64,000 nt of DNA from Candidatus Gastranaerophilales bacterium (GCA_944322945.1 CALUQN010000010.1:2230-66229), one strand, 5' to 3'; positions 8,085-62,245 are shown, counted from the stretch's first letter. Notes: generated by a model not told the origin, from the letters alone. Translations and numbers: made by a program.

Positions 8085-8341
8085 GACCGTGCCACTGTCT
8101 ATCGAATTTACCGACTATAACTTCGGAACAAATTTCCTCTTTTTAATTGTATAACACCCGCAAGGATTGCCTTAGTGCTGCTATGTTTCCATCCTGACAC
8201 GGTTCGGCAGCTTACGCCGCTACACTCTTAAACGTCAACGAAAATTTATCCGTCCGCTATAACCGTTAAACCCTCACAACAGGCTCTGCACCCCGCATTG
8301 GCTTCGGGTCGAGAGATTGCAATTCCCCGTGGAGCACGGTC
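8085..8341 (-). ncRNA. ffs: signal recognition particle RNA, long (Bacillus-type, Alu-domain-containing) form
   Basis: On the minus strand, GUGUCAGGAUGGAAACAUAGCAGCACUAAGGCA matches the domain IV core GUCAGGUCCGGAAGGAAGCAGC..AAGGCA. The 3' end CGAUAGACAGUGGCACGGUC resembles the B. subtilis scRNA end GACAGAAGGUGCACGGU. The termini GACCGUGC/GCACGGUC pair. The region is GC-rich in an AT-rich genome, has no credible ORF, carries a TGCTATAAT extended -10 just upstream, and is followed by a T-run. Confidence 0.75.
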
Positions 8342-8367: not shown

Positions 8368-9141
8368 CTAGTCTGCAAGTTTTGTGATTAATATTGGTGC
8401 ATTGGTGTAAAAGTACGGCAGGGAATTCCCTGCATCGGTGTATCCTACCCAGATTACTCCTGGATAGCTTTGTTTGTTTATCTGTCGTAATTTTTCTTCT
8501 ACATTTGTAAATTTTGTTTTTGAAATTTTTAGGTTCGCAAGATTACTGATGTCACCGATATTTATTATCGTATAGTCTCCGTTTGTTATTCTGTGGTAAT
8601 TTGTTGCTTCTTCAATCGCTTTGTACACCCATTTTATCCTTCCGTTTCGTTTAAGGTTCGCCGGAATTTCCATTGTGTAAATTCCTATTTCTTTTGCGTG
8701 TTCTACAAGCGCATTGATTACTTTTTTGCCCTCATTTTTGTTATCTACTGTCAGGATTAGTCCAGATTTTAGCTTGTCTCCGTAAATGTATTTTTCATCG
8801 CCTTCCATGGCTGCTCTTATCGGGTAAAGTACTTTTTTCTTTAAAAACTTTGCAGTGTTTGGATATTTAAGCTTATTCAGCCCGGCATTTTTGTCGGCAA
8901 GTTCTATAAGGCTTTCAGGAATAATGTTTTTCATCCTCAGATTAAGAAGCATTCCGGCAACTGCTGCCACCGCAAGCAGACTTACAGTGATTCCGAGCGA
9001 ATTATTGTTCATTTCTTTCATTTTTTTTGTCGGATCTGTTTGAAACAAAAAAGGATTGCTAATCTCGACTTTTTTTTCACCTGTCTGAGAATTGCAGAAA
9101 CTTGTTGTGTATGTTTTGTAGGATACCGGACTAACTTGCAT
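8368..9141 (-). CDS. membrane-anchored hypothetical protein, possible degenerate AAA+ core
   Basis: 257 aa. TM helix LGITVSLLAVAAVAGMLLNL. KSGLILTVDNKNEGKKVINALVEHAKEIG and DYTIINIGDISNL align loosely to FtsH-type Walker A/B regions, with key residues replaced. Confidence 0.55.
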   Translation of the reverse strand: MQVSPVSYKTYTTSFCNSQTGEKKVEISNPFLFQTDPTKKMKEMNNNSLGITVSLLAVAAVAGMLLNLRMKNIIPESLIELADKNAGLNKLKYPNTAKFLKKKVLYPIRAAMEGDEKYIYGDKLKSGLILTVDNKNEGKKVINALVEHAKEIGIYTMEIPANLKRNGRIKWVYKAIEEATNYHRITNGDYTIINIGDISNLANLKISKTKFTNVEEKLRQINKQSYPGVIWVGYTDAGNSLPYFYTNAPILITKLAD

Positions 9142-9180
9142 GATATGGTATTAAACCGTAAAATAATATATTTTTGCTAA

Positions 9181-9198
9181 ATTGTAAACTTTTGTATA
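9181..9198 (-). promoter_or_regulatory. HLR1-like direct repeat (1 mismatch)
   Basis: Minus strand reads TATACAAA-AG-TTTACAAT against the consensus (G/T)TTACA(T/A)(T/A)-N2-(G/T)TTACA(T/A)(T/A). Located between the divergent genes 8368..9141 and dfx. Confidence 0.4.
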
Positions 9199-9281: not shown

Positions 9282-9677
9282 ATGACGAAAAAATTAGAAT
9301 TATACCGATGTAATATATGCGGCAATCTTGCAGAAGTAATCATTCCGGGCGCGGGAGAACTCGTCTGCTGCGGTGAGTCGATGGAACTTTTAGAGGCGAA
9401 AAATAATGATGCTGAAGCAAACGAAAAACACGTACCTGTTTTTATGAAAGATGAACAGGGAAAAAATGAAGTCAGAGTGGGTAGTACTCTGCATCCTATG
9501 GAAGAAAACCATTATATTATGTTTATAGAAACAATTACTCCTGATTACAACAGAGCCGAATTGCAGTATTTGCATCCCGGAGAGGAAGCTAAAATGCTAA
9601 TCGGCGAAAAGCTCGGCAAGGAACTTGCCAGAGAGTTTTGTAGTATTCACGGGTTATGGGAGGGCAAAAGTGATTAG
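9282..9677 (+). CDS. dfx: desulfoferrodoxin (2Fe superoxide reductase)
   Basis: N-terminal desulforedoxin CxxC...CC (YRCNICGN...ELVCCGESM). EKHVPV and the SOR domain. RBS AAAGGAG. Confidence 0.9.
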   Translation: MTKKLELYRCNICGNLAEVIIPGAGELVCCGESMELLEAKNNDAEANEKHVPVFMKDEQGKNEVRVGSTLHPMEENHYIMFIETITPDYNRAELQYLHPGEEAKMLIGEKLGKELAREFCSIHGLWEGKSD

Positions 9678-10179
9678 TGATAAAGTCAGAAATATCCTTA
9701 ACGAACAGATTAACAAAGAATTTTATTCCGCTTATTTGTATCTTGCTATGTCTGCTTATTTTGACGAAATTGGTCTTTACGGTTTTTCTAACTGGACTAA
9801 AGTGCAGGCTCGGGAAGAAGTTGACCACGGGATGATTCTTTTTGATTATTTGATTGACAGGAATACGAAAGTCGAACTTATGAGTATAGACACGCCGGAT
9901 TCAGAATTTACAAGCCCTATGCAGGTTTTTGAGAAAATACTTTCTCATGAAATTTCTGTTACTGAAAGTATAAACAGAGTTGCCGCGCTTTCTGACGATG
10001 AATGTGATTTGGCGACAAGAAATTTCATAAACTGGTATATAGCAGAACAAGTCGAGGAGGAAGCTGCGGTTAGGGATGTTATCACAAAATTAGGTATGTT
10101 TGGAGACGAAAAAGCTTCATTATACCTGTTAGACAGAGAGTTTAAAGAACGTGATTACCGCGCTCATTCTTATAAGTAA
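9670..10179 (+). CDS. ferritin (non-haem)
   Basis: ISDKVRNILNEQINKEFYSAYLYLAMSAYF...REEVDHG ferroxidase-centre pattern. A GTG start at 9670 overlapping the dfx stop by 8 nt gives a canonical N-terminus. Confidence 0.85.
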   Translation: MISDKVRNILNEQINKEFYSAYLYLAMSAYFDEIGLYGFSNWTKVQAREEVDHGMILFDYLIDRNTKVELMSIDTPDSEFTSPMQVFEKILSHEISVTESINRVAALSDDECDLATRNFINWYIAEQVEEEAAVRDVITKLGMFGDEKASLYLLDREFKERDYRAHSYK

Positions 10180-10234: not shown

Positions 10235-10306
10235 ATTCAAAAATAGCTAATATTGCGATTTTGTAATCAATTTGTCCGTTTTTTCAAAATATTTTATTAT
10301 ATAAGT

Positions 10307-11917
10307 ATGCAAAAAGGGAAAATAGTCGTAGTTGATGATGAAAAAATGGTTACCTCAGCTTTCAAAACACTTTTAAAAGTAGAGGGCTTTACTGACGCTG
10401 CGTTTTTTAATAACCCTAAAGATGCTGTTGAATATTTAAAATCTGAAAATCCCGATTTGATAATATCTGATTTTATGATGCCGGAAATGAACGGTCTTGA
10501 ATTTTTGACTGAAGCCAAAAAACTTCATCCGGAAACAAGCATGATACTATTGACAGGCTATGCCGATAAAGAAAATGCAATCCGTGCTATAAATGAGGTC
10601 GGACTTTACAAATACATAGAAAAACCATGGGATAACGACGACTTGTTGATGAATATCAAAAACGGTATTGAACGCAGCCATCTGTTATCTGATTTGCGAA
10701 ATACTATTGCGGAACTTGAAGATGCTAAGAACAAGCTTCAGGCTTATTCTGAAAATCTTGAAGCTCTTGTTGCCGAGCGTACAAAAGAATTAACCGAAGC
10801 AAACGCAAAATTGAGCGGAATTGTCAACTACTGCGCAGACGGAATTATTATTATTGATAAGACAGGCGGCATTATACAGGTCAATCCGGCTTGCGAAAAC
10901 CTTATCGGTATGTCGCAAAAATCCCTTGCAAAAATGAAGTTTCAGGAGATAGCATATTCTCACAAACCAGAGATGAATTCTTCCGCTAATAACCAAAACG
11001 GCGGAATATTCGGGCTTAACGCAGATAAAAGTGAAGTTATACTTAGAGATTATTTTATTGTGAATAAGCTGAGCAAAGAACATGTACCGGTAGAAATTAG
11101 TTTTGCTGCTATATCTGCTGAAAACTCACTGCCTGAAAGATATGTCGGCGTTATACGTGATGTTAGCGTACAAAAAGAGACTGAAAAACTTCGAGATGAT
11201 TTTATAGCTACATTGACACATGACTTGCGCACACCTCTTCTTGCAGCTATCCAGACTTTGAAATTTTTCCTGGAAGGCGCACTGGGCGAACTATCAGAAA
11301 AACAAACAGTTTTACTGACGACAATGCTTGGCAGTAATGAAGATTTGCTCGGGCTTGTGAATGCTCTGCTTGAGGTTTACAGGTTTGACAGCGGAAAGTT
11401 AGAGCTGTGCAAAACGTCTTTTAATTTTAAAAATCTCGTCGAACAGTGTTATGAAGAAATAAAGCCGCTTGCACAGAAAAAGGATATAGATTTTATCCTT
11501 AATTGTGAAATTCCTGATAATAGTGAAATTTACGCGGACAAAGCTGAACTCAAACGAGTTATCATCAATCTTTGCGGCAATGCCGTAAATTACACAAATA
11601 AAGGCGGAAAAATTGAAATTCTTACAAAAATTCAATCCGGTGATCTGATTTTTTCAGTAACAGACAATGGCAACGGAATTCCAAAAGAGGATTTGCCGCT
11701 GTTATTCAAAAGATTTTCACAGGGGACAAGCCGCAAACGTTCGACAGGTACAGGATTGGGACTTTATCTTTCCCGTCAGATTATAGAAGCTCACGGCGGT
11801 AAAATCTGGGCAGAAAGCAAACTGGATAAGGGCAGTGAATTTTCTTTCCTCTTAACCGGGGTTGAAGATATAAAAAATGGCAGAAATTTAACAGAAAGGC
11901 AGAAAGTAAATGGTTAG
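10307..11917 (+). CDS. hybrid sensor: receiver + coiled coil + PAS + HisKA/HATPase histidine kinase
   Basis: REC (VVVDDE...IISDFMMPEMNG). PAS-like region. H-box FIATLTHDLRTPL. G-boxes DNGNGI and GTGLGL. ATG at 10307 chosen. Confidence 0.85.
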   Translation: MQKGKIVVVDDEKMVTSAFKTLLKVEGFTDAAFFNNPKDAVEYLKSENPDLIISDFMMPEMNGLEFLTEAKKLHPETSMILLTGYADKENAIRAINEVGLYKYIEKPWDNDDLLMNIKNGIERSHLLSDLRNTIAELEDAKNKLQAYSENLEALVAERTKELTEANAKLSGIVNYCADGIIIIDKTGGIIQVNPACENLIGMSQKSLAKMKFQEIAYSHKPEMNSSANNQNGGIFGLNADKSEVILRDYFIVNKLSKEHVPVEISFAAISAENSLPERYVGVIRDVSVQKETEKLRDDFIATLTHDLRTPLLAAIQTLKFFLEGALGELSEKQTVLLTTMLGSNEDLLGLVNALLEVYRFDSGKLELCKTSFNFKNLVEQCYEEIKPLAQKKDIDFILNCEIPDNSEIYADKAELKRVIINLCGNAVNYTNKGGKIEILTKIQSGDLIFSVTDNGNGIPKEDLPLLFKRFSQGTSRKRSTGTGLGLYLSRQIIEAHGGKIWAESKLDKGSEFSFLLTGVEDIKNGRNLTERQKVNG

Positions 11918-12588: not shown

Positions 12589-14133
12589 ATGCAGTACAAA
12601 AAATCAACTTTAATTTTATTATCAGCATCTTTGCTTTTGTCTGCATTTAATGTTGTTTGTGCTGCAGTTCCGGATTATGAAGATATAAAGTTCAATGTAA
12701 GAACGGGTATTGATGACTTTAAGGACAATGTTGACGACGTAAAAGATAAAGTAGATGATTTTAAAGATGAGGTCGGAGATTTTAAAGAAGGCATTCACAT
12801 CAATATTCCAAACCCTCTTGAGCCTGACATGCGTAAGAAAGAAGCAAAACATAAACATCAGGTAGAAAAACAGGAGGCAAAGGAAGAATATGAGCGCAAA
12901 CGTCAGGAGATAAATCCTTCAGGTTTTATGACTGTGGAGGAGTATGAACAGCGTTCAAAGGCAGTTGATCATACGCAGGATGAAATTGAAATTCCCAAGC
13001 CGGAAAAAGAATCTGATATGAAATATGTTCCGCAGTATACCTATAAAATAGTTAAGTATAACAATCCGCCTGGAACTCCTGAACTTTCAATAAAAAAGAA
13101 ATTTTACACAATGAAGCACATGAATATGCAGGGAATTGCTTCTCCGGATTTTACTAAGCTTGTTTATCCCGTTGTGTATTACTACGCAAATGGGGCGTCT
13201 GTCGCGTGTGAGCTTTTTGTAATTCCGCTGGATGAAAGCGAAACCAATCTTAACAAGCTCATGAAAGCTAATGTAAAGAAAAGGCTTCCTGATCCGATTT
13301 TGTCTACAGACAGAACAATTGATAATGCCTTAACTTTTAGAACTCTTACACCTATTGATTTTTCTGTTGACGGTAATCTTCTTCTCGCAAAGGAAAAAAT
13401 CGGCAGCAGTGCAGACGGCATCTGGCAGACTAATGCTATTGTTTATCACTTTGACACAAAAATGTCTTATGATCTGGTAGAGGTGCGCGATGCTATTGTT
13501 TATTACTGGAAAGAGAATAAAAGCCTAAATCTTGAAGATAAGCGCTGGGATATTTATCCAATCGGGTTTGATATAAATAATCCGGATAGAGTCATTGTTC
13601 AGGCTTATGGATTTACCGGAGACACGCCCGTATTTTTGGGGACTTGGAGTATTGACAGCAAGGGCGAACAGTCTCGGCTTGAAACTTTTGTTAATGCGGA
13701 AAACAGAGTCAGTATGAACGGTTTTAAGCTAGTTCAGGACGGAGTTATAAAACCCAGTGTTTCTGCGGCTGAAGAAAAACAGCTCCAGCGTTTTGAAAGA
13801 GAAAAAGCAAAAGCAAAACGTGATGAAGATAAGGCTAAGCGTGATGCTTTGAAAGAAGAGTACAAAGCTAAAATTAAGGCTATGGACGAAAAGTATTACG
13901 AAGAGCAGCATAACTTTAACCTGCAGCAGCGTGTTAAGGGCTCGACTTCCGGCAATGACGCGGTTGAAATGTATGAACAGTTAAAAGCTGAAGAAATTAA
14001 AAAATACCTTGAAAAGCAGGAAAAATTAAATGCTAAAGAACAGCAGCGCATAGAAAAATTGCTCAATGAAGCTCAGAAATATCAGGATGCGGCTGATGCG
14101 GTTGAAGTTCCGGAGCCGAAGCTGAGTGAATAA
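12589..14133 (+). CDS. secreted hypothetical protein with acidic DDFKD repeats and a K/E-rich coiled-coil tail
   Basis: Signal peptide. GIDDFKDNVDDVKDKVDDFKDEVGDFKEG repeats. C-terminal EKAKAKRDEDKAKRDALKEEYKAK. Lies directly after the two-component genes. Confidence 0.65.
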   Translation: MQYKKSTLILLSASLLLSAFNVVCAAVPDYEDIKFNVRTGIDDFKDNVDDVKDKVDDFKDEVGDFKEGIHINIPNPLEPDMRKKEAKHKHQVEKQEAKEEYERKRQEINPSGFMTVEEYEQRSKAVDHTQDEIEIPKPEKESDMKYVPQYTYKIVKYNNPPGTPELSIKKKFYTMKHMNMQGIASPDFTKLVYPVVYYYANGASVACELFVIPLDESETNLNKLMKANVKKRLPDPILSTDRTIDNALTFRTLTPIDFSVDGNLLLAKEKIGSSADGIWQTNAIVYHFDTKMSYDLVEVRDAIVYYWKENKSLNLEDKRWDIYPIGFDINNPDRVIVQAYGFTGDTPVFLGTWSIDSKGEQSRLETFVNAENRVSMNGFKLVQDGVIKPSVSAAEEKQLQRFEREKAKAKRDEDKAKRDALKEEYKAKIKAMDEKYYEEQHNFNLQQRVKGSTSGNDAVEMYEQLKAEEIKKYLEKQEKLNAKEQQRIEKLLNEAQKYQDAADAVEVPEPKLSE

Positions 14134-14368
14134 GCTCCAGCTTTTTGGCGCGCGGCAGCTTTTTAATCCGGCATTCTTCTTTCATTGCATCAGATTTTGT
14201 CTGAAATTCTTTTGAGTAGACTATTTTGTTTGGTTTATGCACTCTTGTATATTTTGCGCCCTGTCCGCAGGCATGCGCGGCAAACCGTTTTTCAATATCA
14301 TCCGTGTAGCCGCAGTAGAGCTTGTCGTCTTCAGTCAAAAGTATGTAGACATAATAGTTTTTATCCAT
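14063..14368 (-). CDS. GIY-YIG nuclease-family protein (YhbQ-like)
   Basis: YYVYILLTEDDKLYCGYTDDIEKRFAAH...GAKYT signature. The 3' tail overlaps the convergent gene by 71 nt. Confidence 0.8.
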   Translation of the reverse strand: MDKNYYVYILLTEDDKLYCGYTDDIEKRFAAHACGQGAKYTRVHKPNKIVYSKEFQTKSDAMKEECRIKKLPRAKKLELIHSASAPELQPHQPHPDISELH

Positions 14369-14455: not shown

Positions 14456-14797
14456 TTAGCAGAAGGAAGAAAACCCGCCTGAAGAACCGCAGGAACCGCC
14501 AGTGCTGCATCCTGCCGATACTGCGCATCCGCCGGCGCTGATTGTTGCTACTGCTGATGAAAAATTGCTTAAAAATCCGCCTGCTGTTGAACTGCCGTCT
14601 GTGCAGTTTGCATAGCTTGCATAATCTATTGAAACCGGATTGCTTGTCGTAAATGTGTCGTAAGAATTCATTGCCAGATAATCAGATTTTTGACCCATAG
14701 GCATTAAAGCAAGTGATCCTGCTGTTTCTACCGTTTCTACAGGTTTATTAGCGTTGTTAACTCTTTCAGCTTGTGTTTGTCTTGTTGCTACGTTCAT
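14456..14797 (-). CDS. 113-aa protein with a Cys/Gly/Ser-rich C-terminus
   Basis: ATG at 14797 has AAGGAG 7 nt upstream. The C-terminus is ISAGGCAVSAGCSTGGSCGSSGGFSSFC. The gene has its own terminator. Confidence 0.6.
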   Translation of the reverse strand: MNVATRQTQAERVNNANKPVETVETAGSLALMPMGQKSDYLAMNSYDTFTTSNPVSIDYASYANCTDGSSTAGGFLSNFSSAVATISAGGCAVSAGCSTGGSCGSSGGFSSFC

Positions 14798-14883
14798 TAA
14801 CTGCTCCTTAATTGCTCTCGTGTTATTACTTACATATATATAAACTAATTTTCTTTTTCCCAATTTCAGCATGTATGTTTTTT

Positions 14884-14901
14884 GTTACATTTGTTTACAA
14901 A
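14884..14901 (+). promoter_or_regulatory. perfect HLR1 (RpaB-type) direct repeat
   Basis: GTTACATT-TG-TTTACAAA matches the consensus with no mismatch. Located in a divergent intergenic region. Confidence 0.6.
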
Positions 14902-14976
14902 TAGTTTGTACCTGTCAAAAATCTTTATTCAGGGACTTATAATATAGAAACACATAAGTAAAGAAAGAGGTATAAC

Positions 14977-15261
14977 ATGCGCATTAATCCTGTTATGAAT
15001 ACACAAGTTCATTTTCAAAGAAATAATAATGACAAGCAGCCGCAGCAGGCTTCCGCAATGAAGAATATTGCAAAGGCAGTAGTTGTGGTTCCGTTAATCA
15101 TGCCGGTTGTTGTTTCCTGTGACCATGACCCAATTGATATTGATATAGACAGAACACACGATATACATGTTAAAGATTCTGTTACTCATGACTCAAATCA
15201 TGACCATTATGAAACCAGAGCAATCAATTTTAACGATGCTTCTCTCGATATAGTCGGGTAA
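14977..15261 (+). CDS. small His/Asp-rich protein, possible lipoprotein
   Basis: RBS GAAAGAGG. Hydrophobic segment ending in the lipobox-like VVSC. The putative mature part CDHDPIDIDIDRTHDIHVKDSVTHDSNHDHYE is rich in His and Asp. Confidence 0.55.
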   Translation: MRINPVMNTQVHFQRNNNDKQPQQASAMKNIAKAVVVVPLIMPVVVSCDHDPIDIDIDRTHDIHVKDSVTHDSNHDHYETRAINFNDASLDIVG

Positions 15262-18320: not shown

Positions 18321-18554
18321 ATGCTTGAATTATACATTTCTGAAACCTGTCCCTACAGCAGAAAAGTGCTGGATTATTTTGATGACAACCATATTGCGTA
18401 CTTAAAACACGATATTTCCGAACCTCAAAATTTGAAGGTTTTGCTTGAAAAAGGCGGCAAAGCCCAGGTTCCTTTTATGGTTGATGATGAGCACGATTTG
18501 AGTTTGTATGAATCGGATGACATTATTGATTATGCAAAACGACTTTATAGGTAG
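18321..18554 (+). CDS. glutaredoxin-like thioredoxin-fold protein (single-Cys CPYS motif)
   Basis: 77 aa, ETCPYSRKV...VPFMVDD pattern. Confidence 0.7.
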   Translation: MLELYISETCPYSRKVLDYFDDNHIAYLKHDISEPQNLKVLLEKGGKAQVPFMVDDEHDLSLYESDDIIDYAKRLYR

Positions 18555-18561
18555 GTAAATT

Positions 18562-20163
18562 ATGTATTACAATTACTATAAACCGTCAGAAAACGAATTT
18601 AATGACTGTACATCAAAGGGCGTGTGTTCAGTTCCGCCCTCTGTTTCAGCGTTCAGAGAAGTTATTGTTATGCTGCTGCGCCAGCTTGCTTATTATATCG
18701 TAAAGCTCAATATTGCCGGCGTCGAATGTGACGAACTTAAACTTGAGCTTGTGCGTTCGCTTGCAAGTATTTTTACCTCGGCAGACTATAGTGATGATGA
18801 AGTCTATACTTGTATTTTAACAAATTATAATAACCTTATTCAGACAAAAGAGTTTTATATACAGATTTGCAAAGACAAAGGGATTACTCCGCGTGAATTG
18901 AAAAGTGAGGTTAGAATCTCGTCTGATATGAATCTTTCAAAATTGATGTCGCTTGGTGAAAAAATTTTCAAAGCACGTAATAAGAAAATTAATCCTCAGC
19001 ACAGGCAGCTTTTTGAAATTATGCTGCTTGTTACGCAGAGTCTTGCTGGAAATTTAATTTCTCTTGCAGATTACACCGATGTAGATATGAAATTTGCAGA
19101 TAAAGCTGTTGGTGCTCTCGATATGCTTAATTATCCTCGTTCATCGGTAATCAAAATAAAAAATTACATTTCAGACATCGTTTCATTGAATTTTGAACTT
19201 GTTTCAACTCTCGGAGATGAGATATATGCTCAATTCGGTGCTATCAGAGAAAAATCGGTTCCGCTATCGTCAAGACCGGGCAAGGCAATACTTGTTTCCG
19301 GCTCTAATCTCAAGGATTTATCAAATCTTTTGGAAAGTCTTGAATGTGTAGATATTGATGTTTATACTCACTCGGATTTATTGATTGCGCATGCGCTTGA
19401 AAAATTTGGAGAATACAAGAATTTATGCGGGCATTATGGCAGCAATTCAGATAATTTCATGCTCGATTTTGCAACATTCCCCGGTGCAATTTTACTCACG
19501 CGCGGGGCAGCAAAAAATATTGAATACCTCTACAGGGGACGACTTTTCAGTACGGATAAGGCTGTTCCTGTCGGCGTTACTCCAATCAGGGATAAGGATT
19601 TTTCCGTGCTTATACAGACGGCTGAAAAGGCAAGAGGTTTTAAAACAGGCAAGGAAAAAGGCTTTATAAAAGTCGGCTATAATGCTGATGAGTTAGAAAA
19701 TATTCTGCAAAATGCTGCAAATTCTTTTAATAGCGGCTCAATACAGAAGGTTTTCGTTATCGGTTTGACGAGTATGTCTTCACGTAATAATGATTTTTAT
19801 AATGAGCTTTTGGCAAAAGTTCACGATGATACTTTTATTATCAGTTTCGGTGCAGAAAGGGAGGATAAAAATATTCTGCCGTTGAATCTTTCAAACAACG
19901 TGCCGCTTTTGTACAGATTGATGAACAAATTTTTGGCGCTCGTAAAATCAGATTATGAGAGATTTTCATTTTTTATTTCAAAGTGTGACTCAAATTCAAT
20001 AAGTACAATGATTGCTCTGAAAGAACACGGATTCAACAATATCTATCTGAACAACTGTCCGCCTAATGCGGTTAATCCTCTCACTATCAATGCTTTTGCC
20101 AAACTTTACGGTATAAAAATGATTACTAATCCTAAAGAAGATATAAAAGAAATAATTCAGTAA
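18562..20163 (+). CDS. hybrid-cluster-protein (prismane) family homologue, cluster ligands apparently lost
   Basis: GKAILVSGSNLKDLSNLLESLECVDIDVYTHSDLLIAH...NLCGHYGS parallels HCP [38 protein letters not shown]...LVGNYGS. The N-terminal Cys cluster is reduced to DCTSKGVC. Confidence 0.65.
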   Translation: MYYNYYKPSENEFNDCTSKGVCSVPPSVSAFREVIVMLLRQLAYYIVKLNIAGVECDELKLELVRSLASIFTSADYSDDEVYTCILTNYNNLIQTKEFYIQICKDKGITPRELKSEVRISSDMNLSKLMSLGEKIFKARNKKINPQHRQLFEIMLLVTQSLAGNLISLADYTDVDMKFADKAVGALDMLNYPRSSVIKIKNYISDIVSLNFELVSTLGDEIYAQFGAIREKSVPLSSRPGKAILVSGSNLKDLSNLLESLECVDIDVYTHSDLLIAHALEKFGEYKNLCGHYGSNSDNFMLDFATFPGAILLTRGAAKNIEYLYRGRLFSTDKAVPVGVTPIRDKDFSVLIQTAEKARGFKTGKEKGFIKVGYNADELENILQNAANSFNSGSIQKVFVIGLTSMSSRNNDFYNELLAKVHDDTFIISFGAEREDKNILPLNLSNNVPLLYRLMNKFLALVKSDYERFSFFISKCDSNSISTMIALKEHGFNNIYLNNCPPNAVNPLTINAFAKLYGIKMITNPKEDIKEIIQ

Positions 20164-21318: not shown

Positions 21319-22323
21319 TTATATTTTGTAATATTTCAGTGTCTGATTAATTTCTTTCGGCGGTACCGTTGAGACTACACGTGCCACTGTACGAGCTTTG
21401 CCTGAGTCAAGATAATTGAAGCCGTATGGTGTTGTTACTTTTGCACGAAGTGCATATTTTACCGCATCATTTACAGGCAGCGTTTCGTTTAACTCCGTAA
21501 TTAGTCTATACATTGGCTGCGAGTAAACTTTATTGCCTATGCTGTTTTTAAAAACTGACGCCTTCAATATTTTTGCCGCTTCTTCTGCTGATACTTTTCT
21601 TGTCTCCATGCTGATGAAACCATCATTAAACATTGCTTCACTCAGCTTGTCGTTTCCTTGCCAATCCGTTAATATTGATGCGTTTTTGATTGTTTTTACT
21701 GTGTCGATATCGTATCCGTCATAAAGTTTGTTTACAATGAGTTTTCTTGCAAGAGGAGAAAATACATTTTTCCCGTAATATTTTAATTCAGAGGCTTGTC
21801 TGATCTCTTCTTCCGGAATATCTATTTCTGTTCTTCTTAGTTCCGGATATTTTTCGTCAATGTCAACATCCGGTGCGTAATTTATATCAACAAGCGGAGA
21901 ATCCAAATCTCTCGGCGCTATATCTGTATCAGGCATAAACCATTTGTTTTCGGAAAAAGTGTACCCTTTTGCTCTGTAAAATTTTCTGTCAACGGGATTG
22001 TAAAATTGTGTAACAATTGGTTCTAAGTCATCTTCATCGTAGCTGTCATATCCGCTCAAATCGTGTTCAAGAGAAATGTCAAAAAGTTCGTCGTCGCGGA
22101 AAATAGCTCTGCGGGCAGCGACGTCTTCCGGTGTTTCCTGCCTGAAATACGGCTTTTTCTTCTCGATGTATAATACGTCTTTTAACACAAACGGTATCGG
22201 ACAATTTTCATAATTCTGTTCATAGACATCCCTGTTTGCTGTTGTTTGTGTTTTAGGCTTTTTCGTTGAAGTGAAATAAGCTCTTTGGACAGGGCTGGTA
22301 TTTGTTATACGTTGAATTTGCAT
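21319..22323 (-). CDS. hypothetical protein
   Basis: 334-aa ORF. N-terminus MQIQRITNTSPVQRAYF. No recognised domain. Confidence 0.6.
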   Translation of the reverse strand: MQIQRITNTSPVQRAYFTSTKKPKTQTTANRDVYEQNYENCPIPFVLKDVLYIEKKKPYFRQETPEDVAARRAIFRDDELFDISLEHDLSGYDSYDEDDLEPIVTQFYNPVDRKFYRAKGYTFSENKWFMPDTDIAPRDLDSPLVDINYAPDVDIDEKYPELRRTEIDIPEEEIRQASELKYYGKNVFSPLARKLIVNKLYDGYDIDTVKTIKNASILTDWQGNDKLSEAMFNDGFISMETRKVSAEEAAKILKASVFKNSIGNKVYSQPMYRLITELNETLPVNDAVKYALRAKVTTPYGFNYLDSGKARTVARVVSTVPPKEINQTLKYYKI

Positions 22324-22967: not shown

Positions 22968-23591
22968 ATGTATTTTGATAGAAAATGTAAAATTACTTAT
23001 ATATGTAATGGCGGCACAATTTTTTCAGAGGATAACAGATTAACTGATTCTGAAAATTATCCGCCGTTGAGTGAGGCCGGAGTTGAGGAAGTCGAAAGAA
23101 TTTGTGATTATTTAAAAAAACGCGGAATTAAAAATAACAAAATTTATTCATCTCCGGCAACGCGTGCAATGCAGACTGCACAGATGGTTGCTAAGATTTA
23201 TAAGCAGGATTTTGAAATTATTGAGGACTTGCATCCGAGAAAATGCGGTGGTTTCAACAATATGACCTTTGAGCAGCTTGAAGAAAAATGCCCTGAGGAT
23301 TTGAAACGATTGATTACACAGCCGGAAATCAGAACCCCGGATGATGCTGAAAGTGTTTCTGAATTTATTGACCGTGTAAAGATTGTTATTGATAAAATTG
23401 TTGCGGAAAATCAAGGCTCAAGGATTATTGTTGTGACTCACAAGGACGTTATAAAAGCTGCTATATGCCTTGCGCTTAATATTCCGGCAAGTTCTCTTCA
23501 AAGAATTTACATAAAAACAGGCTCTGCCACACAAATTAGCTATTATGACGAATGGGCAAGCTTAATGTATTCTGATTACACTCCTGTTTAG
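22968..23591 (+). CDS. histidine-phosphatase (phosphoglycerate mutase-like) superfamily protein with a non-canonical active site
   Basis: SSPATRAMQTA and VVTHKDVIKA motifs are retained. The expected N-terminal RHGE(T) reads NGGT. ATG 22968 with AAGAGG upstream. Confidence 0.7.
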   Translation: MYFDRKCKITYICNGGTIFSEDNRLTDSENYPPLSEAGVEEVERICDYLKKRGIKNNKIYSSPATRAMQTAQMVAKIYKQDFEIIEDLHPRKCGGFNNMTFEQLEEKCPEDLKRLITQPEIRTPDDAESVSEFIDRVKIVIDKIVAENQGSRIIVVTHKDVIKAAICLALNIPASSLQRIYIKTGSATQISYYDEWASLMYSDYTPV

Positions 23592-25204
23592 ATGTTGTCT
23601 CCCATCCAGGAAAGTAAAGAATTTATATTTACGCATTTGTCTTGCGAAATGGTGCTGCTATCAAGATACATATCCTGTGAAAAATTTTTCAGGATGTGAC
23701 TAAGCGTCTCTTCTTCAGGCAGCATTTCTTTTACCTCTTCAACAGGTGGTTCGCCTTCTTTTTTGTGGACAACGCGTGTTAATTTTGCTGATTCAATTTG
23801 AGGATTTTCCAGGTCTCCTTTAAACTTAATATTTAATCTGATAGTATCTCTCGGATTAAACAGTGTGAGGTCATTAAGTGATTCACCTTCAACAAGTTTA
23901 AATCCCCCATTTTCTGATATCAATTTTGTATATTTAGGTCTTGCGTCAGTGATTTTGGGCGGCGTGTAGCGCTCAATTGATTTAAAGTCATCATTGTAAC
24001 TGATAAAAGATTTGTCAGGATTATATGTATAATGTCCTCCAAAGTCAGCTTTATCAGACCCGAATTTTGCATTGTATACGTGGGTGCAGTCCGTCATTTT
24101 AGGTGTTAATTCAAACCCGTCAACAACGTGGCTTCTGATTTGCCCTTGTGCAACTGTTCCTCTGTCGGCAAATATTTTCAGTAAATCCGCATAATCTGTG
24201 ATGGGATTTTCTATGTCAGGTCGGAGTCCAAAATCTTTGTACAGGGTTTCGCAAACTTCGTTATAGCCGTCATCTATTATATCTTGTTGATTTTTCAGAG
24301 TTTCACGGAATTTTTGCGAGTGTATAATTTTGTAGACTTCTTCTTTTGATTTACCGGTTTGGTTTGCAATATCATCAATTGTAGAGTCAATATCAAGTTT
24401 ATGGCGCCACCTGCTTAATAGTTTTTCACTTTTTGCCGAGGGCATGAGATTGTCAATTATCGGCTTGCCGTCTCCTATTTCATAACAATCCAATATTGCA
24501 TCTAAATCAAATTGCCTTACAATTTTTTGAGCAACTGATTGGTTTATGTCAGTAACGATGACCTCACCTGATGCCGCATCGAAACGGATTGGGCGGAAAG
24601 CGTCTATGTACAACTTATTGGTAAGCACACCATGCTTATTAACAATCGGTGTTAAGTTGTTGTTACCTATAAATAATTCGCTAATCTGCGTAAACTCACC
24701 GTCAGACGGTCGGTGGATATTCATTACAACATCGCCGTTAGTTACCTGCATAAAACTCATATCGTCATTAAATTTGAGTGTTCTGCGTGCATCTGCATCT
24801 GCTTTAATAATTTTTGTAAGCAAACTCTCCTGATTATTTACAACAATTCTTTCAGGTGTCTCAAGTGTTTCCGGCTTAAATTTTGAGAAGATGCTTTCGC
24901 CGAAATTGAAATCAAATTTTTTGTTTATAATATTTTTGAAGGGGTCAAAATTTGCGATCTCTTCAGCAATGGAACTTAGCTCTGATGAGCCCTTTCCTCT
25001 TCTGAGATAATATATTCCGCCTGTGACTGTCGCTATTAAAGCTGCAGCAGCCGCAGCCGACCAGTAAATTTTAGATTTTGCTGAATGTTTGTCTTTAGCC
25101 TCCGCATCAGGATTTGTCTGCGTAGAAGTCTTTTGCTGTACTCCGGCAGCACGATTAAGCAGAAAATCATTCTGGAGACCTAAGTTCACTTTACTTTCTA
25201 ACAT
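23588..25204 (-). CDS. membrane-anchored hypothetical protein
   Basis: 538-aa ORF. A single TM helix (IYWSAAAAAALIATVTGGIYYL) follows a polar N-terminus. Confidence 0.6.
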   Translation of the reverse strand: MLESKVNLGLQNDFLLNRAAGVQQKTSTQTNPDAEAKDKHSAKSKIYWSAAAAAALIATVTGGIYYLRRGKGSSELSSIAEEIANFDPFKNIINKKFDFNFGESIFSKFKPETLETPERIVVNNQESLLTKIIKADADARRTLKFNDDMSFMQVTNGDVVMNIHRPSDGEFTQISELFIGNNNLTPIVNKHGVLTNKLYIDAFRPIRFDAASGEVIVTDINQSVAQKIVRQFDLDAILDCYEIGDGKPIIDNLMPSAKSEKLLSRWRHKLDIDSTIDDIANQTGKSKEEVYKIIHSQKFRETLKNQQDIIDDGYNEVCETLYKDFGLRPDIENPITDYADLLKIFADRGTVAQGQIRSHVVDGFELTPKMTDCTHVYNAKFGSDKADFGGHYTYNPDKSFISYNDDFKSIERYTPPKITDARPKYTKLISENGGFKLVEGESLNDLTLFNPRDTIRLNIKFKGDLENPQIESAKLTRVVHKKEGEPPVEEVKEMLPEEETLSHILKNFSQDMYLDSSTISQDKCVNINSLLSWMGDNI

Positions 25205-25237
25205 ATATTTATAAACAACTGTAAGAAATCTTTTTTG

Positions 25238-26785
25238 CTATAATGTAACTTTTTGTAACGACAAGAGCCGCTTGTTTTCCTCAATTAAAAACTCTTTGCC
25301 GGGTTTTATTTCAATAAAATCCCATGGGAGCGCTGCGTCAAATTCATAGTTGCTTAAAGCAAAAAAGTCTGCGTCTATGGTGTCCTTGGCACAAGATTTG
25401 AACGCCCCGATTTTGCCGCCTTTTTGGTAAACATCAATCAAAAAATCCGTGAGACTCTCGTCTCCGCGGGAGAGTACTGCCTGCCAATAATCCCATTTAA
25501 TGCTTGAAAAGTGTGCAGTAATACCAAGTTTGTGAAATTCTTTTTTCAGAAAGTTAACTTTATTTTCCAGACTTTTTGTTTGCTCTCTTCCGCACCACTG
25601 AAACGGGGTGTTTGCTTTTGGTACAAAACTGGAAAATCCAAATGATATATCAAACCCTTTATTCTCTTCCTTTAGTCGTTTGGCAAGCCGTAAAAGTTCT
25701 TCCAAGTCTTCATCGCATTCTGTCGGCAGCCCCAGCATACCATAGAATTTGACTCCTTTCAGCCCGTTTTCTCTACAAATTTTAACAGCTTCAAAAATTT
25801 GTTCTTCTGTTACATTTTTGTTTATAACCTTGCGCAGACGTTCACTGCCTGCTTCTATTGCAAGAGTTGTATTTTTTTGTCCTGCTGTTACAAGTGTTTT
25901 TATTATATCCGGCTTTACCGCGTCAATTCTAAGGGAAGAGAGGCTCATCTCAATTTTTTCACCGTTTTGTATTTTTTTGTAAATATATTCGCATATATCT
26001 CCAAAGTGAGGATGCGCACTGATTTGAGCGCCTAAAAGTGCTATTTTATTTGTTTTTGACAGTCCCAGTTCTATTACCTTAATAAGTTCGTCATAGGGCA
26101 TAAATCTGAGCGGCAGGTTTAAATAAGAAGCAAGGCAGAAACCGCAGCGGTTTGCGCAGCCTCTTGCAACTTCCACTATAAATGTGTTCTTGAAAAATGC
26201 GTCTTCGCTCAATATCGGAGTATATATACATTCTGTGAGCTTTTTTGTAAGTTTTTTTACTGACTTTTGCGGCTTGGAAGGTACATATATCCCGTCGACT
26301 TTTGAGAGCATTTCAAGAATTTCATTACGTGATTTATCTTTATTATCCTTACAAATTCTTGCTGCTTCAAGGTTTACGTCTTCTCCGTCCCCAATAACGA
26401 TAAAGTCAAAAAAGTTTTTGTACGGTTCAGGGTTTGCGCTCACTACAGGACCTCCGGCAAATATCAGCGGGCAATCCTCTTCTCTTTCGGTTGATTTCAG
26501 CGGAATTTTATATTTGTCAAGCATTGAAAATATCGTCAGAAAATCCATATCAAACGAAAAAGAAAATCCGATTACATCAACATCTTTGAATGAGTGCATT
26601 GTGTTTTTGGTGTCTGAAAATATCATTTCCGCATTGATATCACACATTTCATCAATTCCTTTGAATACCCACAAGAAACCGAGTGATGAAAGTGCAAAAG
26701 ATTTCGGACCCGGAAATGCCATCCACAAGGTGAAGTCAGCATTTTTGTCAGTTATTGGATTGTATAGATAGATATCTTTAGTCAT
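25238..26785 (-). CDS. B12-binding-domain radical SAM protein
   Basis: CANRCGFCLASY CxxxCxxC motif. N-terminal Rossmann-like B12-binding-type region (VIGFSFSF...FAGGP...VIGDGE). Confidence 0.85.
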   Translation of the reverse strand: MTKDIYLYNPITDKNADFTLWMAFPGPKSFALSSLGFLWVFKGIDEMCDINAEMIFSDTKNTMHSFKDVDVIGFSFSFDMDFLTIFSMLDKYKIPLKSTEREEDCPLIFAGGPVVSANPEPYKNFFDFIVIGDGEDVNLEAARICKDNKDKSRNEILEMLSKVDGIYVPSKPQKSVKKLTKKLTECIYTPILSEDAFFKNTFIVEVARGCANRCGFCLASYLNLPLRFMPYDELIKVIELGLSKTNKIALLGAQISAHPHFGDICEYIYKKIQNGEKIEMSLSSLRIDAVKPDIIKTLVTAGQKNTTLAIEAGSERLRKVINKNVTEEQIFEAVKICRENGLKGVKFYGMLGLPTECDEDLEELLRLAKRLKEENKGFDISFGFSSFVPKANTPFQWCGREQTKSLENKVNFLKKEFHKLGITAHFSSIKWDYWQAVLSRGDESLTDFLIDVYQKGGKIGAFKSCAKDTIDADFFALSNYEFDAALPWDFIEIKPGKEFLIEENKRLLSLQKVTL

Positions 26786-26789
26786 ATAA

Positions 26790-27818
26790 TTACTCGTTAT
26801 TGCTGTTTATTGGCAGAATGTACAGTTCATCAATCAGCACGCAGACAGTTGCAGCAAGCGCCGGAGCTAATATTACCCCCCACAATCCAAGAAACTGCTG
26901 CCCGACAAACAGAGCAAAAAACATCGTCAGCGGATGAAGTTTCATAAATTTGCCAAACAAAAACGGTCTTACTATATAGTTTGACAGCTGCTGCACAACA
27001 AGGAACAAAATAACTGCAATGATTACTTTTGTCATTCCAAGTTGATATGCAACAAGAACAATTACCGCAAGCGCGATTGCAGGTCCTAAAATTGGGATTA
27101 TATCAAGTATTCCGGAAATCAATCCTAAGAGTATTGCATAATCTATCCGCATCAGCCACAAATATATTGTAACCATTATGCCTATTGCAAGCATTGATAT
27201 AATCTGTGCTCTGATGTAGCTGCCGACTTTCAAGCTTATAGATTTTAATATTGTAAGTGCTTTTGCTTTTAACTCCTGCGGAAAAAGTTCTACAAACTTA
27301 TCCTTGAGGTAATTTTTGTCTACCAGCAGATAAAATACTATCATTGTAATTGCTAATGCCAGTACAAAAAATTCCCCCAGAGCCATTGTGAAATTCCACG
27401 ACTGGTTAAATATATTCTGCGCGATATCCGTTGTTTTGTTGAGCTGTAATCCTTTATCAAAGATATCCTGTATGCTCAGTCCGAAAATATCAAGATTAAT
27501 CAAGTAATTTGTAAGCAACTCTATTTTTGCCGGGAGCATTTTTGTGAAGGTTTTTATTTCTTTAAAGGCAATTAAAAATATAGGCAAAAATACAGCAATA
27601 ACGCCGGCACAGCTGGCTGTAAGCACAAGTGATGAGGCAACTGCTCTGTTCATTTTTCTTTTTTGCAGCTTTTCAACATACGGATTTAATGCGCATGCAA
27701 TTACGTATGATGCAAAAAATAACAATAATATCCCTGCAATTTTCGGGATTATAAACAGTAGTGCAATTATCGAAACTAAAAATAAAATATTTTTTACTGT
27801 GAAAAATGACTTGAACAT
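26790..27818 (-). CDS. AI-2E family (PerM/UPF0118) transporter
   Basis: Polytopic membrane protein with ILDIIPILGPAIA. ATG 27818 with GGGAG upstream. Confidence 0.85.
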   Translation of the reverse strand: MFKSFFTVKNILFLVSIIALLFIIPKIAGILLLFFASYVIACALNPYVEKLQKRKMNRAVASSLVLTASCAGVIAVFLPIFLIAFKEIKTFTKMLPAKIELLTNYLINLDIFGLSIQDIFDKGLQLNKTTDIAQNIFNQSWNFTMALGEFFVLALAITMIVFYLLVDKNYLKDKFVELFPQELKAKALTILKSISLKVGSYIRAQIISMLAIGIMVTIYLWLMRIDYAILLGLISGILDIIPILGPAIALAVIVLVAYQLGMTKVIIAVILFLVVQQLSNYIVRPFLFGKFMKLHPLTMFFALFVGQQFLGLWGVILAPALAATVCVLIDELYILPINSNNE

Positions 27819-27923
27819 ACTGATATCTCCCTCAGGTATTATTACTAAATTAGTATATATCAAAAAAAATTCATGAGCAATTGTATAATTGGCTACCAGC
27901 TGGCTGCTGTCTGCTTTAAGCTA

Positions 27924-27941
27924 ATTGTAACAAATTGTAAA
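27924..27941 (-). promoter_or_regulatory. perfect HLR1 (RpaB-type) direct repeat
   Basis: Minus strand reads TTTACAAT-TT-GTTACAAT. The site ends 8 nt before a plus-strand TATAAT (27950..27955). Confidence 0.6.
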
Positions 27942-32303: not shown

Positions 32304-32321
32304 TTTACATATTGTTACAAA
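32304..32321 (+). promoter_or_regulatory. perfect HLR1 (RpaB-type) direct repeat
   Basis: TTTACATA-TT-GTTACAAA, 20 nt upstream of a candidate -35. Confidence 0.6.
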
Positions 32322-32369: not shown

Positions 32370-32455
32370 TTTCACGACAACTAACGTACAAAACTATATA
32401 AGGAGATATTACCATAGCTAACGATAATAACAGATCAGGCAAAGATCAGGCAATA

Positions 32456-32953
32456 ATGAATGAGCGTATTCGCGCTAAAGAAGTAAGATTAATTGATGAA
32501 AACGGTGAAAATAAAGGTGTCATTGAAACCTCTAAAGCATTAAAAATGGCTTACGATGTTGATTTGGACCTGGTTTTAATCAGTCCTAATCAGGAACCGC
32601 CTGTTGCTAAAATCTTAAACTATGGCAAATATAAGTACGAACAAGAGAAAAAAGCTAAAGAAGCCAAGAAAAAACAACATACTGTCGAAGTTAAAGAAGT
32701 TAAAATCAGATACAAAATAGACACGCATGATTATCAGGTAAGGATTAAAAATATCCAAAAATTCATTGCTCAGGGCAATAAAGTGAAAATCATAATCATG
32801 CTTCGCGGTCGTGAAATGCAGCATTCCAATCTTGCTTTTGACCTTGCAGCAAGGTTCATGGAAGATTTGAAAGATGCTCCTCTCATGTTTGAGAAAAAAC
32901 CTCAGCTTGAAGGCCGCAACGTCACATTGTACCTGGCTCCGCAAGGTAATTAA
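32456..32953 (+). CDS. infC: translation initiation factor IF-3
   Basis: NERIRAKEVRLIDENG...VAKILNYGKYKYE canonical IF-3. The true start may be ATT 32408 or ATA 32414, after AGGAG at 32401. Confidence 0.9.
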   Translation: MNERIRAKEVRLIDENGENKGVIETSKALKMAYDVDLDLVLISPNQEPPVAKILNYGKYKYEQEKKAKEAKKKQHTVEVKEVKIRYKIDTHDYQVRIKNIQKFIAQGNKVKIIIMLRGREMQHSNLAFDLAARFMEDLKDAPLMFEKKPQLEGRNVTLYLAPQGN

Positions 32954-34407: not shown

Positions 34408-34410
34408 ATT

Positions 34411-35805: not shown

Positions 35806-35812
35806 AAAAAAA

Positions 35813-47032: not shown

Positions 47033-47107
47033 ATACACAATTATTTACATATAATGGCATTTTTTTTAGATTTCGGCTAAAATTATACTGTTGAAAGAGG
47101 GATAACC

Positions 47108-56827: not shown

Positions 56828-56931
56828 GCATGTTAATTTTTGTAACTAAAAGTATATACGATTTTAAAGTTTTTGCTCCTCCGTGACGATAAATAATATG
56901 TAATCAGAAACTTATAAAGGAGAATTTATAT

Positions 56932-57087: not shown

Positions 57088-57130
57088 GTGGCTGTTATCT
57101 CGTGATTAAATAAGATAGTTGAGAGTAAGA

Positions 57131-61322: not shown

Positions 61323-61492
61323 AATCTCTTTTCTGATAAATATATAGAATTTATCAGAAAAATGCTTGCAATTTTTGTTAAATTATATTAATATATCGTT
61401 ATAAATATTTAAGAAAATTAAGAAAAAGCAATATTTATTAATAAAAAATATTAGTGTTTGAATGTGATTAATTAAAATGTAAGGAAAAGACT

Positions 61493-62245
61493 ATGACAGA
61501 AAATGCAGAAATGACTACTACTGAAAATGAAGATCGTCAAAGAATTCTTTTAGCCGATGATGAAGCTTCAATCAGACGTATTCTAGAGACCAGATTAAAA
61601 ATGGCCGGTTATGATGTGTACACAGCTGCTGACGGTGAAGAAGCCGTTAATGCATTTAATAAATATAATCCTGATTTGGTTGTTTTGGATGTTATGATGC
61701 CAAAGATGGACGGTTATGGTGTAACAAGAGAAATCAGACGTACTGCTGATGTTCCGATTATTATCCTGACTGCATTGGGTGATGTTTCTGAAAGAATTAC
61801 AGGACTTGAGCTTGGTGCTGACGATTATGTAATTAAACCATTTTCTCCGAAAGAATTAGAAGCTCGTGTCAAGGCTGTATTAAGAAGAACAAATAACAGA
61901 GAAACGATTACACCGAGCGGCAAAGTTACCAAAAATGTAATAACAACAGGTAATATCAAAATTGATACAGCAAGACGTCAGGTATACAGAAAAAATGACA
62001 GAATTCGTTTAACCGGTATGGAATTTAGTCTTTTGGAACTGCTGGTTAATAATTCAGGGCAGGCATTTTCAAGAAACGAAATTCTCCAGCATGTTTGGGC
62101 TTATCCGCCTGATCACAGAATTGATACGCGTGTTGTTGACGTTCACATTTCAAGATTACGTTCAAAATTGGAATCAGACCCGGCAAATCCTGAATTAATC
62201 TTGACAGCTCGCGGTATTGGATATATGTTCCAGAGAATAAACTAA
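61493..62245 (+). CDS. rpaB: OmpR-family response regulator, RpaB/Ycf27 orthologue
   Basis: DDEASIRRILETRL...TAADGEEA...DLVVLDVMMPKMDGYGV...VPIIILTALGDVSERITGLELGADDYVIKPFSPKELEARV is nearly collinear with cyanobacterial RpaB as I recall it. Confidence 0.8.
   Translation: MTENAEMTTTENEDRQRILLADDEASIRRILETRLKMAGYDVYTAADGEEAVNAFNKYNPDLVVLDVMMPKMDGYGVTREIRRTADVPIIILTALGDVSERITGLELGADDYVIKPFSPKELEARVKAVLRRTNNRETITPSGKVTKNVITTGNIKIDTARRQVYRKNDRIRLTGMEFSLLELLVNNSGQAFSRNEILQHVWAYPPDHRIDTRVVDVHISRLRSKLESDPANPELILTARGIGYMFQRIN

Follow-up and report, generated by a model that had tools for sequence, protein, structure and literature searches.

The window analyzed here is a 64-kb piece of a gut Candidatus Gastranaerophilales (Melainabacteria) genome with 37% G+C, and the element of interest is a candidate operator of the HLR1 type, the direct repeat bound by the cyanobacterial response regulator RpaB. 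This repeat, GTTACATTTGTTTACAAA at 14884..14901 on the plus strand (site 1), reads GTTACATT-TG-TTTACAAA and fits the pattern KTTACAWW-N2-KTTACAWW, with which both strands were scanned, without a mismatch. It lies in a 179-bp spacer between two divergent genes. On the minus strand, 14456..14797 encodes a 113-aa Cys/Gly/Ser-rich protein from a small family to which no function is assigned; on the plus strand follows a 94-aa open reading frame (ORF; 14977..15261), a putative small lipoprotein that according to similarity searches is fast-evolving and lineage-restricted. Sequence and alignment together predict a core promoter for the Cys/Gly/Ser-rich gene at 14835..14863 on the minus strand, TTGGGA (14863-14858)-N17-TATATA (14840-14835), and a TATAAT at 14938..14943 is the predicted -10 box of the plus-strand gene. 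All of these elements had been part of the original prediction for this DNA and are present as described there. Between site 1 and the predicted minus-strand -35 box, the alignment shows the block ATTTCAGCATG (14863..14873), which is invariant in five species and unique in the window.

Site 1 is one of four perfect HLR1 matches in the window, counting both strands; the others start at 25242 (minus strand, site 2), 27924 (minus, site 3) and 32304 (plus, site 4). Two further matches, at 9181 and 21997 (both minus), have one mismatch. The earlier count of three perfect matches and one with a single mismatch was thus slightly too low, and the strong over-representation claimed with it is confirmed: 100 dinucleotide-preserving shuffles yielded 0.02 perfect matches on average and never reached four, Markov-1 simulations of the window gave an expectation of 0.025–0.033, and 0.4 one-mismatch matches are expected. 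In a position-weight scan the six sites scored 17.6–24 bits, while the remainder stayed at or below 13.9 bits, the level of the shuffles; weak matches at 47034, 56829/56839 and 41708 fall into this range and were not counted. Dimers of the OmpR/PhoB family bind head-to-tail repeats with a 10-bp period. Same-strand TTACA-TTACA pairs occur five times at a spacing of 10, at most four times at every other spacing up to 40, and not at all at 11. Each of the four perfect sites has a start codon at a distance of 37–135 nt, and in all five sites (the perfect ones and that at 9181) the orientation of the repeat points to the gene on the same strand. The matches had also been described as all intergenic, which is nearly correct. 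The exceptions are 25242-25259, which overlaps the end of a radical-SAM gene, and 21997-22014 inside a 334-aa ORF (21319..22323). The latter is probably a chance match; it was rejected as an operator and not counted because it sits inside a conserved reading frame.

Light acclimation in cyanobacteria and algal plastids is under the control of RpaB, an essential master regulator. The RpaB orthologue in the window, an OmpR-family response regulator and the presumed HLR1 binder, is encoded at 61493..62245 on the plus strand. This assignment, already made in the original prediction, stands: the protein scores 361.3 bits with the NCBIfam model NF045944 (RpaB equivalog, cut-off 330), and all other response-regulator models (MtrA as the next one, also YycF, PhoB and OmpR) remain below their own cut-offs. 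It combines a receiver domain (PF00072) with a winged-helix Trans_reg_C domain (PF00486) and is the sole OmpR-type regulator of the window. The closest relatives, on contigs labelled Candidatus Gastranaerophilales or Vampirovibrio, are 84–95% identical; the identity is 70–75% to other Melainabacteria orders, 68% to Synechococcus RpaB and at most 49% to the best non-cyanobacterial homologues. The window protein shares an identical recognition helix, DTRVVDVHISRLRSKLE, with all Melainabacteria sampled and with Synechococcus sp. CO; that of the Herpetosiphon and Lachnospiraceae controls is different. Over the DNA-binding domain, 73% identity to the Synechococcus sp. CO protein compares with 36–47% to the non-cyanobacterial controls. 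Since the recognition helix is identical, an unchanged DNA specificity of the window RpaB would be the natural expectation. One locus (L025, DATNPN010000022.1) was excluded from the reference set as a photosynthetic reference. The metagenome-assembled genome it comes from is labelled Planktothrix, has 55% G+C at the locus and encodes an RpaB near-identical to Obscuribacterales proteins; the label is probably wrong.

Gastranaerophilales belong to Candidatus Melainabacteria as one of its orders and are described as fermenting organisms that do not photosynthesize (PMC3787301, PMC5877343). In line with a non-photosynthetic host, as had been proposed, a Pfam/NCBIfam scan of nearly all window ORFs revealed no photosystem or hli gene; it found DUF561 (PF04481) and ordinary housekeeping genes. 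An NblS-like kinase is not encoded in the window, whose only kinase is a REC-HisKA-HATPase hybrid (10253..11917). We noticed that the RpaB proteins of Gastranaerophilales and Vampirovibrionales contain no cysteine, with Thr at the position of the cyanobacterial Cys59 (GYGVC), while Obscuribacterales keep the Cys. The missing Cys59 bears on the proposed thiol/thioredoxin control of RpaB.

The rpaB gene itself is preceded by a promoter, TTGCAA-N17-TAATAT at 61366..61394 (plus strand), that an alignment shows to be conserved across Gastranaerophilales. Downstream of this promoter, about 40 nt before the ATG, three relatives carry TTTGTAATATAATGTAAAC, an HLR1 with one mismatch in reverse orientation (L010, 9946-9963; L013, 1560-1577; L014, 1178-1195; the L-numbers denote the loci of relatives used in the comparison). 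In the leader of most other species one TTTTGTAA half-site remains, and in the window the element is degenerate. These HLR1-like elements suggest that rpaB is autoregulated.

The clearest conservation was observed for site 2 (25242..25259, minus strand), which lies 37 nt upstream of the ATG of its presumed target, a 538-aa membrane-anchored protein (23588..25204, minus). Homologues of this protein form four further species clusters (56–79% identity) on contigs that are syntenic with the window. Site 2 is kept in four of four species that have the gene, as KTTACAAAAWGTTACAnT followed by TAGCAAAAAA, and the spacer to the ATG diverges in sequence at a constant length of 37–39 nt. The site overlaps the last seven codons and the stop codon of the radical-SAM gene (25238..26785), where it encodes the final residues LQKVTL*; synonymous positions are invariant inside the site and variable just upstream. 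Conservation merely as coding sequence of the radical-SAM C-terminus can be ruled out by two relatives (L094, L116) that do not have the 538-aa gene: their radical-SAM protein is four residues shorter, and no HLR1 is found there. Because the site is absent where the 538-aa gene is absent, we assign site 2 from these comparisons to the 538-aa gene, with the radical-SAM frame apparently just reading into the element.

Site 3 (27924..27941, minus strand) occupies the divergent region between a 194-aa gene on the plus strand and an operon on the minus strand (25238..27863) that consists of an AI-2E family transporter gene (26790..27863, likely ATG at 27818) and the B12-binding radical-SAM gene mentioned above. 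It is kept in five of five species (window, L088, L090, L094 and L116), with the single half-site variants TTAACA and GTAACA; in L116 the site is perfect and extended by a third tandem half-site. In three of the five species it lies at a constant distance of 38 nt from a conserved TA(T/C)AAT-TGCTCA block. At sites 2 and 3 alike, the flanks have diverged between species, but the two half-sites have remained in place and in phase. The conservation in relatives that had been put forward as a check is therefore seen at these two sites; at site 1 it is seen in part.

At site 1 five species could be compared; the rpaB-flanking loci of relatives stop short of this region and served for taxonomy, for the regulator alignment and as enrichment and control DNA. 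Common to the five are the Cys/Gly/Ser-rich gene, its ribosome-binding site, a TATATATAAA block and the invariant ATTTCAGCATG block. Directly past the latter, the window has GTTACATTTGTTTACAAA and the most distant species (L116) has GTAACATTTGTTTACAAT, so that HLR1 occupies these columns in two of the five species. The columns are degenerate in the remaining three (L093, L094, L097), which form one sub-clade and carry GTAATATTTCTTAATA with a TAATA core conserved among them; this repeat represents a decayed HLR1 or, alternatively, a target of different specificity. Beside the site-1 position, these three loci also have a 4.4-kb insertion in common, with a 411-aa and a 676-aa gene.

The protein family next to site 1 comprises 28 cluster representatives of 92–146 aa among 1.84 billion sequences searched. 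It is conserved over its full length, with an invariant VETAGSLA, conserved YD.F..SNPF and GFLS.FS.AV motifs and a Gly/Ser/Cys tail ending in GGFSS[FV]C. No signal peptide and no Pfam or NCBIfam match was detected in the 113-aa protein. It looks like a leader-plus-core peptide precursor, and no modifying enzyme is encoded adjacent to it; downstream of its gene lies a GIY-YIG gene (14063-14368, minus). The 94-aa ORF shows N- and C-terminal similarity to putative lipoproteins of 269/270 aa in L093 and L097 and to a partial ORF in L091, and by this similarity it appears to be a shortened relative of the 269/270-aa proteins. It is absent in L094 and L116, and no relative was recovered when metagenome contigs were scanned with the 223-aa protein encoded next to it. 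Because the Cys/Gly/Ser-rich gene is conserved and the 94-aa ORF is not, we regard the minus-strand gene as the conserved partner of site 1 on the evidence of these alignments. A divergent promoter for both genes had been proposed. Of its two linkages, that to the minus-strand gene is thus conserved and that to the plus-strand gene is not, which leaves this idea uncertain. The proposal that the targets are redox or metal-related could not be upheld. It rested on amino-acid composition only, whereas the function of the Cys/Gly/Ser-rich family is unassigned and the 94-aa ORF is a fast-evolving putative lipoprotein. The sole redox-related neighbor of a site is the desulfoferrodoxin-ferritin pair at the one-mismatch 9181 site, which is not kept in L116.

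This 9181 site (site 5; 9181..9198, minus strand), TATACAAAAGTTTACAAT, lies between the gene of a membrane-anchored 257-aa protein (8368..9141, minus; 39 nt to the ATG) and the desulfoferrodoxin gene dfx (9282..9677, plus). A site of this type was not found upstream of dfx in L116. Site 4 (32304..32321, plus strand) is located 20 nt upstream of a good predicted infC promoter, TTGTAA (32342-47)-N16-TGcTATGAT (32364-69). In a strain-level comparison of ten contigs site 4 was invariant, while positions nearby vary. The infC gene (32416-32953) probably starts at ATA 32416, 8 nt after AAGGAG, rather than at ATG 32456. Start codons of such a non-canonical kind typically go with autoregulation of initiation factor 3 (IF-3).

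HLR1 is also enriched in other DNA from this order. In 218 kb around rpaB from several Gastranaerophilales species, we found two perfect matches (0.10 expected) and 12 with one mismatch (3.0 expected); 12 of these 14 sites fall outside ORFs of at least 100 aa, and several are located in the rpaB leader. Another 92 kb from Gastranaerophilales SPFH loci contained two perfect (0.05 expected) and two one-mismatch matches (1.05 expected). Non-cyanobacterial control loci (770 kb) had no perfect match (0.025 expected), and their two one-mismatch matches are close to the 1.5 expected.

In cyanobacteria, RpaB acts as an activator when bound between about -66 and -45 and as a repressor between -38 and +23 (PMC13421787, PMC6525291). 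Calculated from the predicted -10 boxes, the center of site 1 would lie near -58 for the plus-strand promoter and near -64 for the minus-strand promoter, that of site 3 near -60 for the AI-2E operon and that of site 4 near -64 for infC; taking the ATG as start site places the centers of site 2 and the 9181 site near -46 and -48. The predicted centers of -46 to -64 fall in or near the activating range of -45 to -66, and alternative -10 boxes put sites 2, 3 and 5 at repressing positions. We took the ATG as start site at sites 2 and 9181 because of a fixed spacing: in five cases (25205-25241 and 9142-9180 in the window, and in L087, L088 and L090), 37–39 nt separate the end of the HLR1 from the ATG, with no Shine-Dalgarno sequence and with invariant protein N-termini (MLESKVNL...). 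This arrangement suggests leaderless mRNAs from HLR1-dependent promoters at both sites. The promoter positions are predicted throughout, and the -10 boxes among them would be compatible with an activator-type geometry. Judged by these distances, we consider the chances even that the sites act in an activating mode.

Together, these observations point to 14884-14901 as a functional RpaB-type (HLR1) operator, and we put the probability of this interpretation of the sequence at roughly 0.7. The head-to-tail KTTACAWW half-sites with their 10-bp period would most likely be bound by a dimer of the RpaB orthologue, and the window would contain at least five such operators. Site 1 would serve the promoter of the Cys/Gly/Ser-rich gene, and it may also serve the plus-strand lipoprotein/membrane-protein operon. 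Phosphorylated RpaB bound about 46–64 bp upstream of the start sites would activate transcription, as it does at cyanobacterial HLR1 promoters of the activating class. Photosystem II cannot supply the input signal. Presumably, the NblS-like kinase that has been reported from these genomes would relay some envelope or redox stress.

A number of points weigh against an RpaB operator at site 1, or against its wider generality. A stricter promoter scan called neither the minus-strand nor the plus-strand promoter there. The GTAATATTTCTTAATA of the three congeners keeps the 8-2-8 layout and has lost the cytosine of both half-sites. The 94-aa ORF is represented by a single cluster at 98% identity among 5.8 billion proteins, so conservation of the plus-strand gene is lacking. 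Neither perfect matches (0.00 expected) nor one-mismatch matches (0.30 expected) turned up in 170 kb from other Melainabacteria orders, and the claim is therefore limited to Gastranaerophilales. At sites 2 and 9181, the opposite strand has an extended -10-like TGnTAnnnT right beside the HLR1, as would befit a repressing operator, for example for desulfoferrodoxin. Finally, Melainabacteria genomes encode RpaA, a second OmpR-type candidate (PMC3787301).

Repression is the most serious of the resulting alternatives, although we consider it unlikely as the main mode of action. RpaB would then sit on or just downstream of the -10 box or start of opposite-strand or nearby promoters and would free these promoters when stress sets in, as happens at the hli promoters of cyanobacteria; the cyanobacterial protein is known to repress from -38 to +23 (PMC13421787). 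On its other strand, site 2 is preceded by TTTTTTGC-TATAAT, and the orthologues keep the TGnTAnnnT as TATATT, TACAAT or TAAACT. The T and A of this apparent -10 box come from the radical-SAM stop codon, however, and the final T from the HLR1, so that its conservation needs no promoter. Because stop codon and HLR1 explain most of the apparent box, we rate repression lower at this site. In addition, the transcript would run antisense to the 3' end of a gene, and site 2 co-occurs with the 538-aa gene and with nothing on the other strand. At the 9181 site, TTTTTGC-TAAATT precedes the element on the desulfoferrodoxin strand, and in strain L102 the site stays with dfx although the left-hand gene differs; the dfx-linked site is missing in L116, yet repression at desulfoferrodoxin remains attractive from this arrangement. 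Site 3 has a TATAAT 8 nt further on, on the strand of the 194-aa gene, and the rpaB leader elements of L010, L013 and L014 likewise lie downstream of a conserved promoter, whereas at sites 1 and 4 no -10 box adjoins the element on either strand.

That the motif is functional and bound by an OmpR-family regulator other than RpaB, such as an RpaA homologue or a paralogue, appears distinctly improbable to us. Melainabacteria do encode RpaA besides RpaB (PMC3787301, PMC5877343), the two proteins share some promoters in Synechococcus elongatus (PMC13421787), and the regulator inventory seen here covers 64 kb of the genome; the 8-2-8 repeat with its TAATA core in three congeners also hints at more than one specificity at the site-1 position. 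On the other hand, KTTACAWW-N2-KTTACAWW is the experimentally defined RpaB site (PMC6525291, PMC13421787), the only OmpR-type regulator in the window shares its recognition helix with photosynthetic RpaB, and the HLR1-like elements in the rpaB leader of several congeners fit autoregulation. RpaB thus appears as the best candidate for the protein that binds these sites. It is hardly credible that the matches are a by-product of AT-rich promoter composition, or pure chance, without a dedicated regulator. The genome has a low G+C content, TTTACA is one base from TTGACA, and the stricter promoter scan took the second half-site of site 1 as a -35 box; site 1 has decayed in three congeners, and the 21997 match sits in coding sequence. 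The dinucleotide-preserving shuffles already take this composition into account and leave 0.02 matches against four observed, and AT-rich non-cyanobacterial controls (288 kb below 45% G+C) contain no perfect match and one-mismatch matches at the expected rate. The preference of TTACA pairs for a spacing of 10, and half-sites retained in phase between diverging flanks, are equally hard to reconcile with chance.

The arrangement closely resembles the cyanobacterial HLR1/RpaB regulon of Synechocystis PCC 6803 and Synechococcus elongatus PCC 7942, with which it shares the operator consensus, an orthologous regulator and its recognition helix, as well as promoter-proximal sites, whose distances would match the activating range by the favored start-site predictions, and, in some species, a possible autoregulatory site at rpaB. 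It differs in several respects. The host has no photosystems, so the redox input from photosystem II QA via NblS cannot apply, and Gastranaerophilales RpaB has no cysteine, with Thr as the equivalent of Cys59. The presumed targets are a small Cys/Gly/Ser-rich protein, lineage-specific membrane proteins, the AI-2E transporter/radical-SAM operon and infC. Perfect-consensus sites also look unusually dense here (four in 18 kb). Head-to-tail (T)TACA/TGTAA hexamers bound by a winged-helix dimer are likewise found in the Bacillus PhoP box TT(A/T/C)ACA-N5, the WalR box TGTWAH-N5-TGTWAH and the E. coli OmpR/PhoB boxes, and operators of this family activate from just upstream of the -35 box or overlapping it, as predicted here. 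The PhoP and WalR repeats have an 11-bp period. In contrast, the window sites keep a strict 10-bp period, with no pair at 11, and fit the full 16-position HLR1 consensus. Ycf27, the plastid RpaB of red algae and other non-green plastids, is another RpaB outside free-living photosynthetic cyanobacteria (PMC6525291); Ycf27 serves a photosynthetic organelle, whereas the window lineage lacks any photosynthesis.

That this non-photosynthetic lineage retains RpaB has been known since 2013, when homologues of RpaA, RpaB and NblS were reported in Melainabacteria and the authors remarked that these 'may have another function' (PMC3787301). A further report of them followed in 2018 (PMC5877343), and a 2025 preprint rooted the NblS tree in Melainabacteria (bioRxiv 10.1101/2025.01.21.633742). 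In the literature on RpaB and Melainabacteria, of which our coverage is incomplete, we found no analysis of HLR1 sites in this group. What is new here is a known operator, paired with the orthologous regulator, in a lineage and before genes for which this element had not been described. Conserved HLR1 boxes in a non-photosynthetic lineage are noteworthy to a specialist; they extend a known system and do not constitute a new one. The operator kept before non-photosynthetic genes turns the remark of 2013 into a testable regulon. The sites provide concrete binding probes for a protein that can be made recombinantly, and, for a gut lineage that is uncultured, an initial set of candidate targets. 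The conserved small-protein family and the orphan membrane proteins, flagged as co-regulated, gain a first functional handle in this way.

The regulator-site pair suggests that the circuit was kept without photosynthesis, and it may be older than photosynthesis. In a more far-reaching scenario, which is possible but which we hold to be doubtful, the RpaB-HLR1 pair would have existed before oxygenic photosynthesis arose, or at any rate before Cyanobacteriia and Vampirovibrionia separated, and would first have controlled envelope and stress genes. Gut Gastranaerophilales would still run this regulon (small secreted or membrane proteins, the transporter/radical-SAM operon, infC, rpaB and, in some lineages, desulfoferrodoxin-ferritin), partly via leaderless RpaB-dependent promoters at 37–39 nt. 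If this were true, the photosynthetic regulon would be a later take-over of a pre-existing circuit. The sites thus offer a way to ask what RpaB and NblS sensed before, or without, photosystem II.

Several short sequences recur around the HLR1 sites. TAG or TAGC follows the repeat after 0–1 nt at four of five window sites (14902-14904, 25238-25241, 27920-27923, 9177-9180). The sequence TAGCAAAAA(A), one change from the -35 hexamer TTGCAA of this lineage, recurs at site 2 in four species and at the 9181 site; L093 and L094 also have it where their site 1 is degenerate. Neither the tail TAGCAAAAAA nor the block ATTTCAGCATG could be retained as a second motif: each occurs once in the window, which corresponds to chance frequency.

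No Pfam or NCBIfam match was obtained for the 113-, 94-, 223-, 257-, 334-, 538- and 194-aa proteins. AlphaFold2 gave unusable models for the 257-aa protein, predicted from a single sequence, and for the 538-aa protein, predicted from a five-sequence alignment; their mean predicted local distance difference test (pLDDT) scores were 34 and 39, respectively. Several lineage-specific proteins near HLR1 sites, encoded at 8368-9141, 23588-25204, 14977-15261 and 21319-22323, share a short N-terminus that begins M-x-(I/V)-x-x-(V/I) and has an aromatic residue some 10 positions later, and three of the four have a single hydrophobic anchor 25–55 residues from the start; BLAST among them gave no significant similarity. 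Genes for the oxidative and nitrosative stress response cluster in two places, desulfoferrodoxin-ferritin and glutaredoxin-hybrid cluster protein (9282-10179 and 18321-20163), with an HLR1-like site near the first pair only. The dnaA gene (34411-35805, minus) lies with ruvA and a SpoU methylase in 33790-38172, and a replication origin may be nearby. An Rfam scan of the window returned just the bacterial large SRP RNA (8087-8339, minus) and three tRNAs, with no match at the HLR1 sites. Directly after a terminator, three half-sites (TATACT/GTTACA/TTAACA) form a degenerate array at 56829-56856; their period is 10 bp and the score is at noise level. The array sits about 80 nt upstream of an unlisted 51-aa ORF (56933-57088), which has a strong ribosome-binding site and its own terminator.

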